NCBI GenBank assembly: GCA_937128795.1
Contig: CAKZMQ010000021.1
Location: forward strand, 30,577 to 94,576
Source of the DNA: an uncultured Solirubrobacterales bacterium
GTDB taxonomy: Bacteria; Actinomycetota; Thermoleophilia; Solirubrobacterales; JACPNS01
Length of the DNA stretch: 64,000 bases
Direction: 5' to 3'
Shown here: in pieces, positions 1,548-11,540 of the stretch
Layout of the letters: every line of letters starts with the position of its first letter
Position numbering within the stretch: the first letter of the stretch is position 1
Program-made: the position numbers and the translations under genes
The notes under the pieces: model-generated
What the model saw: the letters and a program-made list of their open reading frames with translations, nothing else
The model's database searches: none
Told to the model about the DNA's origin: nothing

Positions 1548-5633
<4,086 letters not shown>

Positions 5634-5683
5634 TTGCAGGGCCTTTTACTACCGCTTCTGAGGTATGTATGGTCTTCCTGACA

Positions 5684-5697
5684 CGAACATATGTTCG
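5684..5697. promoter_or_regulatory. LexA (SOS) box CGAACATATGTTCG in the divergent dnaE2 / antitoxin intergenic region
   Basis: Perfect palindrome CGAAC-N4-GTTCG, matching the Gram-positive/actinobacterial LexA operator core (GAAC-N4-GTTC). It lies 51 bp upstream of the dnaE2 ATG (5633, minus strand) and 22 bp upstream of the antitoxin ATG (5719, plus strand). On the minus strand it is immediately preceded by TAGAAT, which resembles a -10 element. Confidence 0.75.
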
Positions 5698-5718
5698 ATT
5701 CTACAGCAGGAGGCAGCG

Positions 5719-5973
5719 ATGGTCGTTATAACATCCGTTATACTGAACGACGTGGAACTGAAGATCACACAAATCGGGAACTCCCTGGGAGTGATCCTCC
5801 CCAAGGAACTGCTCGCCAAGCTCAAGGTTGAGAAGGGCGACTCCCTGCACGTGCTCGAAACGAAGGACGGCGTCGAGCTGACGCCGTTCGATCCCGAGTT
5901 CGCGAACCGCATGGATCGGGTCGAGCGCATCATGCGCGAGAACCGCAACCTGCTCAAGCGACTCGCGGAGTAG
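5719..5973 (+). CDS. AbrB/MazE/SpoVT-fold antitoxin (Phd-like partner of Doc)
   Basis: ORF 5665..5973. The start was moved to the Met at 5719, which is preceded by AGGAGG. The sequence VELKITQIGNSLGVILPKELLAKLKVEKGDSLHVLETKDGVELTPFDPEF is a typical swapped-hairpin AbrB-type DNA-binding domain. The doc gene begins 4 nt after its stop. Confidence 0.8.
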   Translation: MVVITSVILNDVELKITQIGNSLGVILPKELLAKLKVEKGDSLHVLETKDGVELTPFDPEFANRMDRVERIMRENRNLLKRLAE

Positions 5974-5977
5974 TTCC

Positions 5978-6364
5978 ATGACTGAGATCAAATGGCTCCG
6001 CACAGTCGATGTGCTCGGAGCACACAAACTGCTGATCGAATTCAGCGGCGGCAGCGACGGGGTTAGAGATGAGGGGTTGCTCGAATCGGCGCTCGCCCGA
6101 CCACGCAACATTCACGCCTACGAGCCAGATGCACCACTCACAAAGCTCGCCGCTGCATACGGATACGGAATCGCCAACAACCACCCGTTCGTGGATGGCA
6201 ACAAACGGGCTGCGTTCGTCGCGATCGAGTTGTTTCTGGACCTCCATGGCATCACGATCGACGCGTCGGAGGAAGACAAGTACGCGACGATGATCGGCCT
6301 GGCCGCTGGCGATCTGAGTGAAGACGCGCTCTCTGAGTGGTTGAGCGAGCACTGTCATCCGTGA
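5978..6364 (+). CDS. doc: Doc (death-on-curing) family Fic-fold toxin
   Basis: 128 aa with the Doc/Fic signature HPFVDGNKRAAF. It also has the typical N-terminal context (GVRDEGLLESALARP) and is tightly coupled to the upstream antitoxin. Confidence 0.88.
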   Translation: MTEIKWLRTVDVLGAHKLLIEFSGGSDGVRDEGLLESALARPRNIHAYEPDAPLTKLAAAYGYGIANNHPFVDGNKRAAFVAIELFLDLHGITIDASEEDKYATMIGLAAGDLSEDALSEWLSEHCHP

Positions 6365-6406
6365 TCAAACAGCCGATCGGCCATCTTCACCCGTAGTCTT
6401 ACCGCC

Positions 6407-7357
6407 GTGTCCACCCTCACAGAAGACGGAACGCGCCGCCATCGTCGGCTGATGCGGATGGTTTGGCTCGCGATCGCTGCGGCGGTCGCGACGATTGCGC
6501 TGAAGCTCTCGGCCTGGCTGATCACGGGGTCGGTCGGTCTGCTCGCCGACGCCGCCGAGTCGTTCGTCAACCTCGCGGCGGCGATCGTCGCGTTGATCGT
6601 CGTGCGCTGGGCCGGTCAGCCCGCCGACGAGGACCACGCCTACGGACACGACAAGGCCGACTACCTCTCGGCCGGGGCCGAGGGCACGATGATCCTCGTC
6701 GCCGCCGGCACGATCGCGATTGCCGCCGTCGGCCGGCTGATCAATCCCGTGCCGCTCGAAACCGTCGGCCTCGGTCTGGCGATCACAGCCGTCGCCACTG
6801 TGATCAATCTGACCGTAGCCATACTGCTGCTGCGCGTCGGTCGCGAAGAATCGTCGCTGACCGTCGAGTCCGACGGCCGACACCTGATGACCGACGTCTG
6901 GACGTCGGTCGGCGTGATCGGCGGTGTGGCACTGGTCGCAATCACCGGCGTCGAGCGCCTCGACCCAATCATCGCTCTGCTCGTCGCATTCAACATCATC
7001 TTCACCGGTGCGCGCTTGGTGAGGCGCTCGCTCTCCGGGCTGCTCGACCGTGCACTTGAGACCGACGAGATCGCTCAGATCGAGTCGGTGCTCGACAAGT
7101 ATCGCGCCGAGGAAATCTCGTTCCACGCTCTACGCACCCGTCGCTCCGCGCATCGCGCCTTCGTCTCGGTTCACGTTTTGGTGCCAGGCGGGTGGTCCGT
7201 GCAGCAGGGGCACGATGTGGTTGAGCGCATCGAGCACGACCTGCGCTCGCTGTTCGGCACGGTGACGGTCTTCACGCACCTTGAACCGATCGAGGATCCG
7301 GTGTCATTCGCAGACACGCAACTCGATCGTGAAGATGGTCATCCCAATAGCCGCTGA
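6407..7357 (+). CDS. Cation diffusion facilitator (CDF) family metal efflux transporter
   Basis: 316 aa with six predicted TM segments. CDF signatures SVGLLADAAESFVN and HAYGHDKADYLSA are present. The C-terminal cytoplasmic domain reads FHALRTRRSAHRAFVSVHVLVPG. Confidence 0.88.
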   Translation: MSTLTEDGTRRHRRLMRMVWLAIAAAVATIALKLSAWLITGSVGLLADAAESFVNLAAAIVALIVVRWAGQPADEDHAYGHDKADYLSAGAEGTMILVAAGTIAIAAVGRLINPVPLETVGLGLAITAVATVINLTVAILLLRVGREESSLTVESDGRHLMTDVWTSVGVIGGVALVAITGVERLDPIIALLVAFNIIFTGARLVRRSLSGLLDRALETDEIAQIESVLDKYRAEEISFHALRTRRSAHRAFVSVHVLVPGGWSVQQGHDVVERIEHDLRSLFGTVTVFTHLEPIEDPVSFADTQLDREDGHPNSR

Positions 7358-7387
7358 GATCGCTCGCCCGTCGGGGCCGTTGCACGG

Positions 7388-8878
7388 TCAAGCCCGCTGC
7401 TCAAACCATCGCTTGGTCTTGAGATCCTGAAATACGACGGCGTTGCTGCCGCCCTTGAGCACCAGCTCGAAGTAGCGGCGTCTGACCGGACTGCCCGTCC
7501 ACCAACGATCCTCCACCACCCAGCGCTCGCGCTCCTGATCGACCGGGTGACCGCGCAGCGCCAGCGGGTTGCCGTCGCCGTCGGCGCGCAGTTGGGCTGG
7601 CTTGGGGCGACCGAGCGGCACCGGCCCGGGCGAGAGTGCGGTGCGGCGCTCGGGCAGGCGCGAGCCCTCGTTCATCCGCACGACGCGCGCGACCTTCTGC
7701 GGTGAACCGGCCGCTTGACGGGCCTGCTCGGAGGCGACCTTCAGGCGGCGTTTGCGCTCGGCGGGTGAATCCTCGTGCAGCAGCGTCAAGACCTCGTGGT
7801 CGAGCGGCCCGAAGCCGTCGACGGTGAACTCCAGCGCAGACGCGGGCTCGGGTAGTTCGAGCAGTTTGCGCTCGGCGACCAGTTTGATGCGCACGGGGTC
7901 GGCGGTCGGTTCGCGCATCAGGCCGCGCGTGCTCCATGAGCCGCCCTCGATGAAGCTGGTGTGCAGCGTGAAGCCGCGCAGCGTACGGCCAGCGCGCTCG
8001 GGGCGTGCGAGCAGGCGCTCGATCAACAGCGTCAGCGCGCGTTCGAGATCGCCGGCCATCGCACCTTGTGCGTTCCTCGCCTGACCTTCGGCATCGTCGA
8101 TCAGCTCGATCCGCTCGCTCAGGCGCTCGGCGGGCCGGCGCGGGCGCAGTGGTGGCTCTTGTCCGTAGATGAGGTCGCGCGCCGTCAACCCGACGCGGCC
8201 GAATCGTTCGGCCACCTGGGCGCGACGCAGCACCGCGAACTCACCGAGCGTCTCGATGCCGAGCTTCTCCAGCGTCGCGGCCAGCTGCTCGCACTGTTTC
8301 GAGTAGAGCGCAAGCCAGCCGACCGGCGCGTTGGCGAGAAACTCGCGCCGCTCAAGATCGTTGCCGATCACCCGTGGCTTGCGCGGACGCGCCGTACGCG
8401 CTGCGGCCAACGCGATGAACCTCGTCTCGGCCGCACCGATCCTGACCGGTCGACCGATCGCGTCGCGCACGGCCGCGATAACTCCGTCGAAGCCACGGTG
8501 CAGCGGTTCGAGTCCGGCGGATTCGAAGAACACCGTGCCCGGTTTGTCGGGATCGCTCTCGACCTCGGTGCCGATGTTCTCGAGCGCGCGCAGCACGGCC
8601 TCCCACCCATTCGCGGCGGCGACCGGATCCGGTGGCACCAACTTCAGCTGTGGGCAACGCGCGAATGCCTCGCCGACCGACAGACCCGGAGTGACAGCAA
8701 AGGCCTCGGCCGCCGCCGAGACCTGCCCGATCACCGCGCGACCCGTCGGGGGTGGGGCGAGGGCGATCGGTTGCTGCATCAAGGCCGCTGCGACTTCGGC
8801 GTGCCCGCCGGTCGTGCGAGAGCCGGGCACGCACGAATCGGCCGAAGCAGCAACCATCAGCTCAAAACGAGGGAGCAT
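7388..8878 (-). CDS. imuB: ImuB, Y-family-polymerase-like component of the ImuB/DnaE2 mutasome
   Basis: ORF 7388..8974. The Y-family-like N-terminus starts MLPRFELMVAA... The start is set at the Met at 8878 because the upstream 32 codons would contain the LexA box. The gene is close to dnaE2. Confidence 0.8.
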   Translation of the reverse strand: MLPRFELMVAASADSCVPGSRTTGGHAEVAAALMQQPIALAPPPTGRAVIGQVSAAAEAFAVTPGLSVGEAFARCPQLKLVPPDPVAAANGWEAVLRALENIGTEVESDPDKPGTVFFESAGLEPLHRGFDGVIAAVRDAIGRPVRIGAAETRFIALAAARTARPRKPRVIGNDLERREFLANAPVGWLALYSKQCEQLAATLEKLGIETLGEFAVLRRAQVAERFGRVGLTARDLIYGQEPPLRPRRPAERLSERIELIDDAEGQARNAQGAMAGDLERALTLLIERLLARPERAGRTLRGFTLHTSFIEGGSWSTRGLMREPTADPVRIKLVAERKLLELPEPASALEFTVDGFGPLDHEVLTLLHEDSPAERKRRLKVASEQARQAAGSPQKVARVVRMNEGSRLPERRTALSPGPVPLGRPKPAQLRADGDGNPLALRGHPVDQERERWVVEDRWWTGSPVRRRYFELVLKGGSNAVVFQDLKTKRWFEQRA

Positions 8879-8895
8879 TACGCATACAACAGACA

Positions 8896-8909
8896 CGAAC
8901 GTATGTTCG
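8896..8909. promoter_or_regulatory. LexA (SOS) box CGAACGTATGTTCG upstream of imuB
   Basis: CGAAC-N4-GTTCG palindrome 18 bp upstream of the imuB ATG. The extended 18-nt context GACACGAAC(G/A)TATGTTCG is shared with the dnaE2 box apart from one base. TTGACA (a -35-like element on the minus strand) lies just upstream, within the palindrome TGACAAGACATTGTCA (8915-8930). Confidence 0.75.
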
Positions 8910-8953
8910 CATACTGACAAGACATTGTCAAGTGGGCCTGCGAGATCCGGGGC

Positions 8954-9287
8954 TTGCAAGGTCCGAGGTTGCAAGCGGGATCAGTGCGTGACGTTCGTGG
9001 ATTGCTGCGAGGGTGGGTTGACTTTCGTTTGGCACCGATGGGGTGAGGCGGTTGGTTGTGGTGCGGGCCGATCTCGTTGGGGATCGACGTAGTGTGAATC
9101 GGTGGCCCTGATTGCAATGGGGTGTTTTGGTCCAGGAGTCCCCCGGCGGGGGAGTCTTGGACCATTTTGCCCCATCGGAATCACCACCACCAATCAGCCC
9201 ATTCCCTTTTCGGTGCCCAAACGAAAGTCAACCTGCGCCCCGCATCAAACCCCAACCAGATCCCGCTTGCAACCTCGGACCTTGCAA
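8954..9287. repeat. 334-bp long imperfect palindrome with 29-bp perfect terminal inverted repeats (MITE-like element or structured RNA locus)
   Basis: Left end ttgcaaggtccgaggttgcaagcgggatc (8954-8982) is the exact reverse complement of 9259-9287. An internal 22-bp block, gttgactttcgtttggcaccga (9017-9038), matches tcggtgcccaaacgaaagtcaac (9210-9232). The centre, ggtccaggagtcccccggcgggggagtcttggacc, is itself a near-palindrome. Each terminus also contains its own small hairpin (CTTGCAA-N9-TTGCAAG). No convincing ORF is present. Confidence 0.85.
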
Positions 9288-9302
9288 AGGAAAAGGGAAT
9301 TG

Positions 9303-9335
9303 GGCAAAGAGAAAGACCCGGCGTTTGGCCGGGTC
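9303..9335 (-). terminator. Putative intrinsic terminator (minus strand), about 220 nt downstream of dxs
   Basis: Stem GACCCGGC / GCCGGGTC (9315-9322 and 9328-9335) with a 5-nt loop. On the minus strand it is followed by tttctctttg. Confidence 0.55.
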
Positions 9336-9554
9336 TGATCTCTGGGGAGGATACTGCTGTGTCTCTGGGTCGTCTCGTACTTGGGGGAGAGAGACGCCCT
9401 GGAGAAGTCGTGTCCGATAAAACTTGGAGGCGACTTCCGTATCTGGTGGTAAAGATAGGCCTCGTTGTGTGATGTGTGTGTGAGATTGCTCACACTTGCA
9501 CAAAGTACTTACGTCTCGGTATCCCGCTCCTGATGCGGGTTGACGGCAGTCCGT

Positions 9555-11540
9555 TTAGGCGTCGCTGGGCGTCTTCGACGCCATTCGTTCTGTGATGCGT
9601 CGTGCGACGGCATCGGCGGTGAAGCCGATCTCTTCGTGTAAAAGCTTGGGTGCGCCGTGCGTTATGTAGCGGTCCGGAATGCCCACGCGCAATGTCGAGA
9701 CGGGCAACGCGTTGTCGGCCAAATGCTCGATCACTCCCGAACCAAATCCACCGGCCAGCGCACCCTCCTCGAGCGTCACAAGCAGCTCGTGTTCGGCGGC
9801 GAGCTCGTTGACCAGCTCGGTGTCGAGTGGCTTCGCGAATCGCGCATCGGCGACCGTGGCGGACACTCCCTGTTCGGCGAGCACGCCGGCCGCGCCTTGC
9901 GCCACCCCGACGCCGGTTCCGTATCCAAGTAGCGCGACACTTCCGTCACCACGCGACAACACCTCGCCCACACCAACGTCGATCGCAGTGGGCGATTTCG
10001 GCAATGGCACACCAACGCCCTCGCCCCGCGGATAGCGGATCGCCACCGGGCCATCGTCGTGGAGCAACGCCGTGTGCAGCATGTCCACAAGCACAGCCTC
10101 GTCGCGCGGCGCCATCAAGATGATGTTCGGCAACGGGCGTAGATAGGAGATGTCAAATGCGCCGTGGTGCGTCGGGCCGTCGTCGCCGACCAGTCCCGCG
10201 CGATCCATCGCGAAAACGACGTTCAACTTCTGCAGGCAGACGTCGTGAACAATTTGATCGAAGCCGCGCTGCAAGAAGGTCGAGTAGACAGCAACCACAG
10301 GCTTCACGCCCTGCAATGCGAGTCCGGAAGCGAACAAGACTGCGTGTTGCTCGGCAATGCCTACGTCGAAGTAGTGCTCTGGCATTTCTTTCTGCAGGAT
10401 CGAAAGACCGGTGCCGGAATTCATCGCCGCCGTGATGCCGACCACGCGTTCGTCGCGCTTGCATTCGGCCACCAACGCTTCGCCGAAGACCTTGGTGTAT
10501 TGCGGCGGCGCTTTTTTCATCGCCGCTCCGTTGGTGGTCGATTTAGCCGGTGCCGCGGTCGGCTTGCGGTCGGTGATGCCCTTCGGCTTCACCGCGTGCC
10601 ATTGCTCCATTCCTTCGAGTCCACCCTCTTCGGCCGGCGCGAATCCCTTTCCTTTGACCGTCGCGATATGGACGACGACGGGGCGGTCTGCTGCCAGAGC
10701 TTCCTCGATCGCCGGGCGTAGCTCGCTGACGTCATGCCCGTCGATCACGCCGATGTATGCGAAGTCGAGCTCCTCCCAGAACAATCCGGGCGCCCAGAAG
10801 GCCTTGACGGATTCCTTGAATTGGGGGCCGAAGCGTTCGAACGCCGCGCCGATACCTGCCGGTAGTTTGGTGAGCGCACTTTCCGCACCGTCACGCGCCT
10901 TGTAGAGCTTCGGATTCATGCGAACCCGATTGAAGTAGCGCGAGAGCGCCCCAACGTTTGGTGAGATCGACATGCCGTTGTCGTTGAGAATCACGACGAT
11001 CGGCGAACCCAGGCCACCTGCATTGTGGATCGCCTCAAAGGCGACGCCTCCGGTCATCGAGCCGTCACCGATTACGGCAACAACCTTGCCGTCGGGTCCG
11101 CTGCCCATCCGCATCGCCTCTTTGAGGCCCACGGCGTATGAAATCGATGTCGAAGCGTGCCCCGCCCCCATGATGTCGTGCTCACTCTCAAAGCGTGCGC
11201 AAAACGGCGCAAGCCCGTCGTACTTGCGGATCGTGGGAAGCTGATCGCGTCGGCCGGTGAGAATCTTGTGGGGATAGGCCTGATGTCCGACGTCCCAGAG
11301 GATCTTGTCGGTCGGTGAATCAAGCAGCGCATGCAGCACCACTGACAGCTCGCAAACGCCGAGGTTCGCGCCGAAGTGTCCGCCGATCTCGCCGACCGTG
11401 TCGATCAGCTCTTCGCGGACTTCCTGGGCTATCTGTTGGAGCTGCTGGTCGTCGAGACCCGAGAGGTCATCGGGTCCGTCGACGCCGGACAGCAACGAGC
11501 CCGACGGCAAAGCGTTTTCGTTGGATTTTGATTTCGCCAA
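9555..11540 (-). CDS. dxs: 1-deoxy-D-xylulose-5-phosphate synthase
   Basis: 661 aa. Contains the TPP-binding motifs GHFGANLG, WDVGHQAYPHKILTGR and IGDGSMTGGVAFEA. The transketolase-like C-terminus reads ITAAMNSGTGL and DVGIAEQHAV. Confidence 0.95.
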   Translation of the reverse strand: MAKSKSNENALPSGSLLSGVDGPDDLSGLDDQQLQQIAQEVREELIDTVGEIGGHFGANLGVCELSVVLHALLDSPTDKILWDVGHQAYPHKILTGRRDQLPTIRKYDGLAPFCARFESEHDIMGAGHASTSISYAVGLKEAMRMGSGPDGKVVAVIGDGSMTGGVAFEAIHNAGGLGSPIVVILNDNGMSISPNVGALSRYFNRVRMNPKLYKARDGAESALTKLPAGIGAAFERFGPQFKESVKAFWAPGLFWEELDFAYIGVIDGHDVSELRPAIEEALAADRPVVVHIATVKGKGFAPAEEGGLEGMEQWHAVKPKGITDRKPTAAPAKSTTNGAAMKKAPPQYTKVFGEALVAECKRDERVVGITAAMNSGTGLSILQKEMPEHYFDVGIAEQHAVLFASGLALQGVKPVVAVYSTFLQRGFDQIVHDVCLQKLNVVFAMDRAGLVGDDGPTHHGAFDISYLRPLPNIILMAPRDEAVLVDMLHTALLHDDGPVAIRYPRGEGVGVPLPKSPTAIDVGVGEVLSRGDGSVALLGYGTGVGVAQGAAGVLAEQGVSATVADARFAKPLDTELVNELAAEHELLVTLEEGALAGGFGSGVIEHLADNALPVSTLRVGIPDRYITHGAPKLLHEEIGFTADAVARRITERMASKTPSDA

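Follow-up and report, generated by a model that had tools for sequence, protein, structure and literature searches.

Doc has been described as a kinase that is inhibited by its antitoxin (PMC10728895), and type II toxin–antitoxin (TA) modules linked to the SOS response are known from the dinB operon of Escherichia coli (yafNO) and from Caulobacter (higBA) (PMC9578287; PMC8265657). For the SOS mutagenesis cassettes of the imuA(′)-imuB-dnaE2 type, variable and split configurations have been reported (PMC9578287). Here we analyse a 64,000-nt stretch of DNA from an uncultured Solirubrobacterales bacterium (contig CAKZMQ010000021.1; hereafter the window), in which an antitoxin gene and doc lie next to the LexA box of dnaE2, which encodes an error-prone DNA polymerase. 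A preliminary description of the window had proposed that this box wires the toxin to the SOS response. We lean towards another reading, in which the pair is a long-resident, vertically inherited, autoregulated and leaderless type II TA module that stands next to the dnaE2 LexA operator with a promoter of its own; regulation by DNA damage would then most likely concern dnaE2, not the toxin.

The pair resembles Phd/Doc of phage P1 and the chromosomal doc modules in its Fic fold, in the motif H-x-F-x-D-[AG]-N-K-R and in having a small antitoxin gene directly upstream. It departs from P1 Phd/Doc in that the antitoxin belongs to the AbrB/MazE-fold doc_partner family (TIGR02609) and not to the Phd/YefM fold, and in that a tandem direct repeat, GTTATAAC-N4-GTTATAMT, forms the putative operator and at the same time supplies the −10 element of a probably leaderless mRNA. 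As in the dinB-yafN-yafO-yafP operon of E. coli, a type II TA adjoins a LexA-boxed gene for an SOS translesion or mutagenic polymerase (PMC9578287). This analogy, which the preliminary description had drawn, breaks down at the level of transcription: in E. coli the LexA-controlled promoter of dinB also drives the pair, which lies downstream in one transcript with the polymerase gene, whereas the pair in the window is divergent and would use its own promoter. The components differ as well, YafO being a ribosome-dependent RNase and Doc a kinase, with Pol IV as the polymerase in E. coli and ImuB/DnaE2 in the window. The higBA pair of C. crescentus is likewise a chromosomal type II TA linked to SOS (PMC9578287; PMC8265657), for which SOS regulation and induction by damage have been reported experimentally (PMC9578287); in the window, by contrast, the box lies at −55 to −68 of the predicted TA start (5752) and is shared with, or belongs to, dnaE2. 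Like the imuA(′)-imuB-dnaE2 cassettes, the locus carries ImuB-like and DnaE2 genes with a LexA box before each. It differs from them in being split by a block on the opposite strand (a cation diffusion facilitator (CDF) gene alone in relatives lacking the TA, or TA plus CDF), in that the dnaE2 and imuB start codons of relatives lie inside the LexA boxes on what would be leaderless mRNAs, and in that no imuA or imuA′ was found adjoining imuB (8879–9555 of the window; the rest of the genome was not searched). Our literature searches turned up no report of a Doc module from Thermoleophilia or from imuB/dnaE2 loci. The conserved Doc/dnaE2 neighbourhood described below is real and is new as a description.

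We propose that the locus consists of three independent leaderless transcription units, each built of TANNNT, about 7 nt and a start codon (Table 1). The first would be dnaE2, read leftwards with its start region under the LexA box. The second would be antitoxin–doc, read rightwards from an operator–promoter typical of its family; the antitoxin or the antitoxin–toxin complex presumably binds the tandem GTTATAAC repeats and thereby regulates its own synthesis. The third would be the CDF gene, read rightwards from its own promoter.

Control of antitoxin–doc and of dnaE2

The position of the LexA box relative to the TA depends on where the antitoxin starts. The preliminary description had placed the box 22 bp upstream of an antitoxin ATG at 5719, preceded by AGGAGG. 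Both the ATG and the AGGAGG (5708–5713) are present, and the gap to the box is 21 nt, compared with 50 nt from the box to the dnaE2 ATG at 5633 on the minus strand; the homologues, however, do not use that start. The TIGR02609 profile (74 positions) begins only at residue 14 of the 84-amino-acid (aa) antitoxin that ATG 5719 would yield, and in about 50 homologous cassettes the antitoxin starts 2–4 residues ahead of the KLKIT motif. The stretch that would read VITSVIL in the window (the ‘VITxVI’ reading) is non-coding in the homologous cassettes and holds in-frame stops at several loci, and the 33 nt after ATG 5719 correspond to the conserved non-coding operator of the family.

This element, a tandem direct repeat of the form GTTATAAC-N4-GTTATA(A/C/T)T, precedes 44 of 51 doc_partner/doc cassettes, drawn from unrelated metagenomes (loci L085–L142); none of 51 control segments contains it. 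The second copy, which often reads TATAAT, also serves as a −10 hexamer, and the whole looks like a putative family operator. In the window it reads GTTATAACATCCGTTATACT (5725–5744), exactly 7 nt ahead of a GTG at 5752, and all dnaE2-linked lineages carry it with little or no change. At the position of window 5752, five distinct dnaE2-linked lineages have GTG and four have ATG, always 6–7 nt after TATACT or TATAAT. We take such alternation of GTG and ATG at a fixed distance to mark the start codon of a leaderless mRNA. Two lineages (L175 and L177) retain the cassette without any upstream Shine–Dalgarno (SD) sequence plus ATG. Among the gene starts of the window, the TANNNT-N7-start pattern is enriched (5 of 12 matches, at gaps of 7–8 nt). 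GTG 5752, and not ATG 5719, is probably the main antitoxin start.

Measured from GTG 5752, the box lies beyond the usual repression zone, so direct LexA repression of the TA promoter would not be expected. Box and operator lie 27–31 nt apart in seven lineages; the gap widens to 52 nt in L175 and to 831 nt in L177. This variable gap, together with boxes that occur without a TA and TAs that stand away from the box, argues against obligatory wiring, and the SOS wiring that the preliminary description had drawn from the geometry of the intergenic region is weakened.

The evidence on the box points to dnaE2 instead. The box (5684–5697) is a perfect palindrome of the Gram-positive or actinobacterial CGAAC-N4-GTTCG type. 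Perfect sites of this kind occur twice in the 64 kb, against 0.25 expected from shuffles, once before dnaE2 and once before imuB. In four relatives without the TA (L005–L008), the box and the dnaE2 −10 hexamer are unaltered and equally spaced, and across all lineages the hexamer is kept as TAGAAT or TAGGAT at constant spacing. Among Solirubrobacterales, dnaE2 has a box of its own in 48 of 52 loci without an adjacent imuB and in 2 of 27 with imuB immediately upstream; the divergent neighbour in those dnaE2 loci varies and includes major facilitator superfamily transporters, GDPD and class II aldolase. In many relatives the dnaE2 start codon lies inside the box, and the in-box ATG is in frame with DnaE2 in L005, L006, L008 and L169. 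Because the box persists without the TA, accompanies dnaE2 in the own-box pattern, stands opposite variable divergent neighbours and contains start codons, we assign it to dnaE2 as its predicted operator. As expected of a LexA-regulon member, the box covers the dnaE2 start region, the −10 hexamer, a promoter element by prediction, abuts the box, and the association is conserved.

The architecture of these starts is itself of interest. The dnaE2 box of Solirubrobacterales (L005–L084) usually holds the start codon, as CGAACAT-ATG-TTCG with TAGRAT 7–8 nt upstream, and imuB starts inside an equivalent box in L172 (3508–3521) and L173 (4468–4481). Thus dnaE2, and imuB in these two lineages, appear to be SOS genes without a leader, with the operator lying over the start codon. 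The in-box ATG has ceased to serve as the dnaE2 start in the window and in L165, L166, L172, L173 and L177; it opens instead an upstream open reading frame (uORF) of 13 codons, and DnaE2 restarts about 55 nt downstream of the in-box ATG, at 5633 in the window. We read this uORF as a relic of the original DnaE2 N terminus.

Distribution and history of the module

Contigs from four samples (GCA_041232675.1 among them) encode the identical Doc protein in an unchanged layout. By its DnaE2 relatives, the window belongs to Thermoleophilaceae/Solirubrobacterales. The four closest of 80 species representatives (L005–L008) carry imuB, the opposite CDF gene, the LexA box and dnaE2, without antitoxin or doc. 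Homologues of Doc at 66–84% identity were found in a collection of 5.8 billion proteins, and nine clusters of 67–84% identity were examined for context. In eight (P0002, P0003, P0004, P0005, P0008, P0009, P0013 and P0016) the module is divergent beside dnaE2; in the ninth (P0007) the contig ends at the antitoxin side and imuB flanks the module, which places it in the same locus. For a tenth cluster (P0017, 66%) the contig is too short for the neighbourhood to be seen, and a 63% homologue (P0019) is located elsewhere. None of the Doc homologues in an 80-locus metagenome set (about 60% identity or less) adjoins dnaE2, imuB or CDF. The preliminary description had proposed such a survey of doc beside imuB/dnaE2, taking confinement to one strain as a mark of random insertion; the eight of nine clusters beside dnaE2, with the ninth beside imuB, give the opposite picture.

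In the DnaE2 tree, TA-bearing lineages fall in all three subclades and are interleaved with TA-less ones (bootstrap 75–97%). The simplest history would be one ancestral acquisition of the TA followed by at least three clean losses. The identity of Doc to its window counterpart (67–84%) tracks that of DnaE2, ImuB and the CDF protein, and the GC content at third codon positions (GC3) of the TA genes is host-like. These data fit a long vertical residence of the TA in a Thermoleophilaceae clade. The GC content is 58% over the TA, 68–70% in the immediate flanks and 62% on average in the window. A foreign origin suggested by the low GC of the TA was dropped, given the window mean of 62% and the host-like GC3. 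Insertion into a single species, initially favoured on the basis of the TA-less L005–L008 and of a neighbour-joining tree that set the window beside the TA-less L005, was overturned by the wider protein search, the contexts and the extended DnaE2 tree. As a MAFFT alignment across the TA gap misplaced the CDF side, the junctions were read by hand and from anchored printouts.

No other protein of the locus is as conserved as the antitoxin, which shows 81–96% identity against 67–84% for Doc and 64–85% for DnaE2 (window versus L165–L177). In TA pairs, antitoxins usually diverge faster than toxins.

Alternative relations between toxin and polymerase

Several observations weigh against separate control of antitoxin–doc. 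The proposed TA promoter has a poor −35 region, and the promoter and start positions are read from sequence. Ahead of the operator, six of the nine TA-bearing lineages (the window, L165, L183, L166, L172 and L169) keep an SD-like purine run and an in-frame ATG or TTG despite change in the flanks, and gene callers picked the 84-aa form of the antitoxin in several contigs. A transcript using ATG 5719 must begin at or to the left of the box and would therefore be LexA-sensitive. Furthermore, the predicted dnaE2 and TA starts are about 62 bp apart, so that the polymerase footprints would overlap and some coupling could arise without direct LexA repression.

Taken over all routes, functional coupling of the TA and the mutagenic polymerase through their shared 60-bp control region is a possibility that we entertain only tentatively. 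Any of three routes could provide it: a LexA-gated upstream TA promoter serving ATG 5719, co-repression of dnaE2 by operator-bound antitoxin, or occlusion of the TA promoter by SOS-induced dnaE2 firing, which would free Doc.

The first of these routes corresponds to the SOS-wired Doc of the preliminary description, which we regard as doubtful. A promoter at or left of the box would drive antitoxin–doc via AGGAGG and ATG 5719, LexA would repress the TA, and damage would induce it together with dnaE2. Two candidate promoters could serve, an in-box TATGTT, from which transcription would begin near 5703, or TTTACT-17-TATGGT, which would place the start near 5680, and the box would then sit inside the promoter or between promoter and gene. 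The preliminary description had named TTACTA...TATGGT as a plausible plus-strand promoter; its hexamers are present (5646–5651 and 5668–5673), but they form a weak site (7 of 12 matches) that is absent from the promoter scan, and the TTACTA part is not conserved in relatives. That scan, a consensus search of 5400–7600, scored no sigma-70-like site and is uninformative for the −10-only promoters of actinobacteria. For the SOS-wired arrangement speak the in-frame AGGAGG-N5-ATG and its retention in the six lineages named above, the conservation of the neighbourhood over 67–84% Doc identity, and the precedent of LexA-regulated type II TA modules, yafNO in the dinB operon and higBA of Caulobacter (PMC9578287; PMC8265657). 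However, L173 has the upstream start in another frame and L175 and L177 lack it, and a purine-rich remnant persists in the TA-less L005, so that the element may belong to the dnaE2 promoter region. A codon-level look at the 11-codon N-terminal extension offered too few sites and independent lineages to tell translation. The family-wide evidence favours the downstream start with its own −10, and the box is equally conserved where the TA is missing.

Less probable still, and in our view quite unlikely, is an indirect or reverse coupling that needs no LexA operator for the TA. Here the dnaE2 and TA promoters would stand back to back with overlapping polymerase footprints; either the TA complex would co-repress dnaE2, or SOS derepression of dnaE2 would occlude the TA promoter, lower the antitoxin and free Doc. 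The geometry would allow this, with dnaE2 starting near 5690, the TA near 5752 and the operator at about −35 to −54 of the dnaE2 start, and the operator lies 21–24 nt from the dnaE2 −10 in seven of nine lineages. The high conservation of the antitoxin and the long retention of the neighbourhood are also in its favour. The case is one of geometry, however, and L175 (46 nt) and L177 (about 0.8 kb) break that geometry with both units kept, while at least three lineages lost the TA with the dnaE2 promoter unaltered. A recent, strain-specific random insertion of a mobile TA cassette by the dnaE2 box, to which the absence of the TA from the four nearest GTDB species representatives and the slightly lower GC over it might have pointed, is extremely improbable given the eight further Doc lineages beside dnaE2, the ninth by imuB in the same locus, the presence of TA-bearing lineages in all three DnaE2 subclades, a Doc divergence that parallels that of its neighbours, and host-like GC3.

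Were coupling true by any route, Doc-mediated translation arrest would be timed with ImuB/DnaE2 mutagenesis in a Thermoleophilia clade. It would constitute a second, independently evolved link between a mutagenic or translesion polymerase and a toxin that arrests growth, after dinB-yafNO, with another toxin family and another polymerase, in a poorly studied actinobacterial class. With separate control of antitoxin–doc as the favoured reading, the value of the locus is as it stands mainly cautionary and descriptive. A LexA box beside a gene can be taken as evidence of SOS control only once that gene's true start and promoter have been established. The analysis also yields a clean candidate operator for the doc_partner/Doc family, documents putatively leaderless SOS genes with the start codon inside the LexA box, and provides an example of a chromosomal TA kept at one locus over genus-to-family-level divergence, with repeated clean losses.

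Features and neighbouring genes of the locus

In this split imuB...dnaE2 SOS mutagenesis locus, a plus-strand antitoxin–doc–CDF block separates two minus-strand genes (Table 1). According to the open reading frame (ORF) listing and gene calls, the TA on the opposite strand is divergent from dnaE2 and convergent with imuB. The perfect LexA box, the AbrB-type antitoxin, the Doc protein with its HPFVDGNKR motif and the CDF gene 42 bp further on were all recovered, by script and by reading, where the preliminary description had placed them.

Table 1. Annotated features of the imuB–dnaE2 locus, in window coordinates
Feature	Position	Strand	Basis or remark
dnaE2, error-prone Pol III alpha paralogue, 1361 aa	1548..5633	-	PHP, DNA_pol3_alpha, finger, HHH_6 and OB domains; NF004225 at 900 bits
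uORF, predicted leaderless, 13 codons, MFVSGRPYIPQKR*	5649..5690	-	Translation; ATG inside LexA box
LexA box CGAACATATGTTCG, predicted dnaE2 operator	5684..5697		Perfect match; kept in every relative with or without TA
dnaE2 −10 hexamer TAGAAT (ATTCTA on plus strand)	5698..5703	-	7 nt before in-box ATG; predicted function
AGGAGG-N5-ATG, alternative upstream antitoxin start (giving 84 aa)	5708..5721	+	In frame
Putative tandem operator GTTATAAC-ATCC-GTTATACT	5725..5744	+	Second repeat supplies −10 TATACT (5739–5744)
Antitoxin, AbrB/MazE fold, doc_partner family, 73 aa from GTG 5752	5752..5973	+	TIGR02609, PF04014
doc toxin, Fic fold kinase family, 128 aa, HPFVDGNKR	5978..6364	+	TIGR01550, PF02661
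CDF gene −10 hexamer TAGTCT (putative)	6394..6399	+	7 nt before GTG 6407, predicted leaderless
Cation diffusion facilitator gene (MntE/FieF-like), 316 aa	6407..7357	+	PF01545 and PF16916; TIGR01297 at 225 bits
imuB, Y-family ImuB-like, 496 aa	7388..8878	-	PF00817; gene calls on identical contigs
Second LexA box CGAACGTATGTTCG	8896..8909		17 nt upstream of imuB

By profile and by motif, the pair is an ordinary member of the Doc/doc_partner family. The antitoxin scores 81.6 bits against TIGR02609 (cutoff 55.9) and also matches PF04014, and Doc scores 64.7 bits against TIGR01550 (cutoff 38.65) and 65.8 bits against PF02661 (cutoff 24). The HPFVDGNKR motif is encoded at 6182–6208 (Doc residues 69–77), and a Doc-type motif is intact in 117 of 120 homologues among the matches listed and in 15 of the 16 closest. 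The antitoxin stop at 5973 is followed by the doc ATG at 5978, that is, a small cognate antitoxin gene lies directly upstream in the same orientation. The closest solved structures to the window Doc are those of P1 Doc (3K33 and 3DD7), at low identity (E = 4e-9). The Doc of this module would presumably be toxic.

The preliminary description had further considered metal efflux by the CDF protein as part of the module, a suggestion that the comparison of relatives does not bear out. The doc stop at 6364 and the CDF GTG at 6407 are separated by the 42-nt gap; the CDF hexamer and its spacing are the same in TA-less and TA-bearing relatives, and in L173 the hexamer overlaps the doc stop codon. The CDF gene thus has, as predicted from this conservation, its own leaderless promoter, and it is best described as the ancestral divergent neighbour of dnaE2 in the clade and not as TA cargo; nothing ties it to SOS control. 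In a scan of 5400–7600, no plus-strand terminator was found between doc and CDF, and transcription from the TA could therefore continue into the CDF gene.

Extra genes between doc and CDF (or imuB) differ by lineage (L165 3436–4488, L166 2036–3085, L175 6447–6719 and L182 728–3453). They comprise a 350-aa protein without a confident Pfam match, a 90-aa ORF, and an AAA_14/DUF4143 ATPase with two ORFs of unknown function; insertions seem to have landed repeatedly in this gap of the split cassette. In L177 (1494–2340; GCA_016650075.1) a second TA-like pair, an 89-aa ribbon-helix-helix (RHH) protein and a PIN-domain protein, stands between the dnaE2 LexA box and the doc cassette; this pair has a TATAAT-N7-ATG of its own and ATGCAT palindromes. 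A C-terminal tail on the Doc of L182 (P0007) resembles the end of the L177 RHH antitoxin.

The window DnaE2 is longer (1361 aa) than its relatives (1092–1155 aa), the excess consisting of three window-only low-complexity or repetitive inserts at residues 870–951, 1034–1075 and 1096–1140; they include GADRADGADRADGADR and a duplicated KFPHALS...PQGQS unit and are not intein-like. An Rfam scan of 5000–10000 of the window returned no match. The roughly 650 nt upstream of imuB hold no convincing ORF and are followed by dxs (9555–11540, minus strand). Upstream of the imuB LexA box lies a 29-nt perfect inverted repeat (8954–8982 and 9259–9287) with an inner 17-nt pair. Near-identical contigs stop within this inverted repeat (L003 at 9031, L002 near 9146) or part from the window at its right edge (L001 at 9287), past which L001 continues into a fatty-acid desaturase gene and the window into dxs; the inverted repeat at 8954–9287 could represent either a breakpoint of the assembly or a repeated or mobile element.

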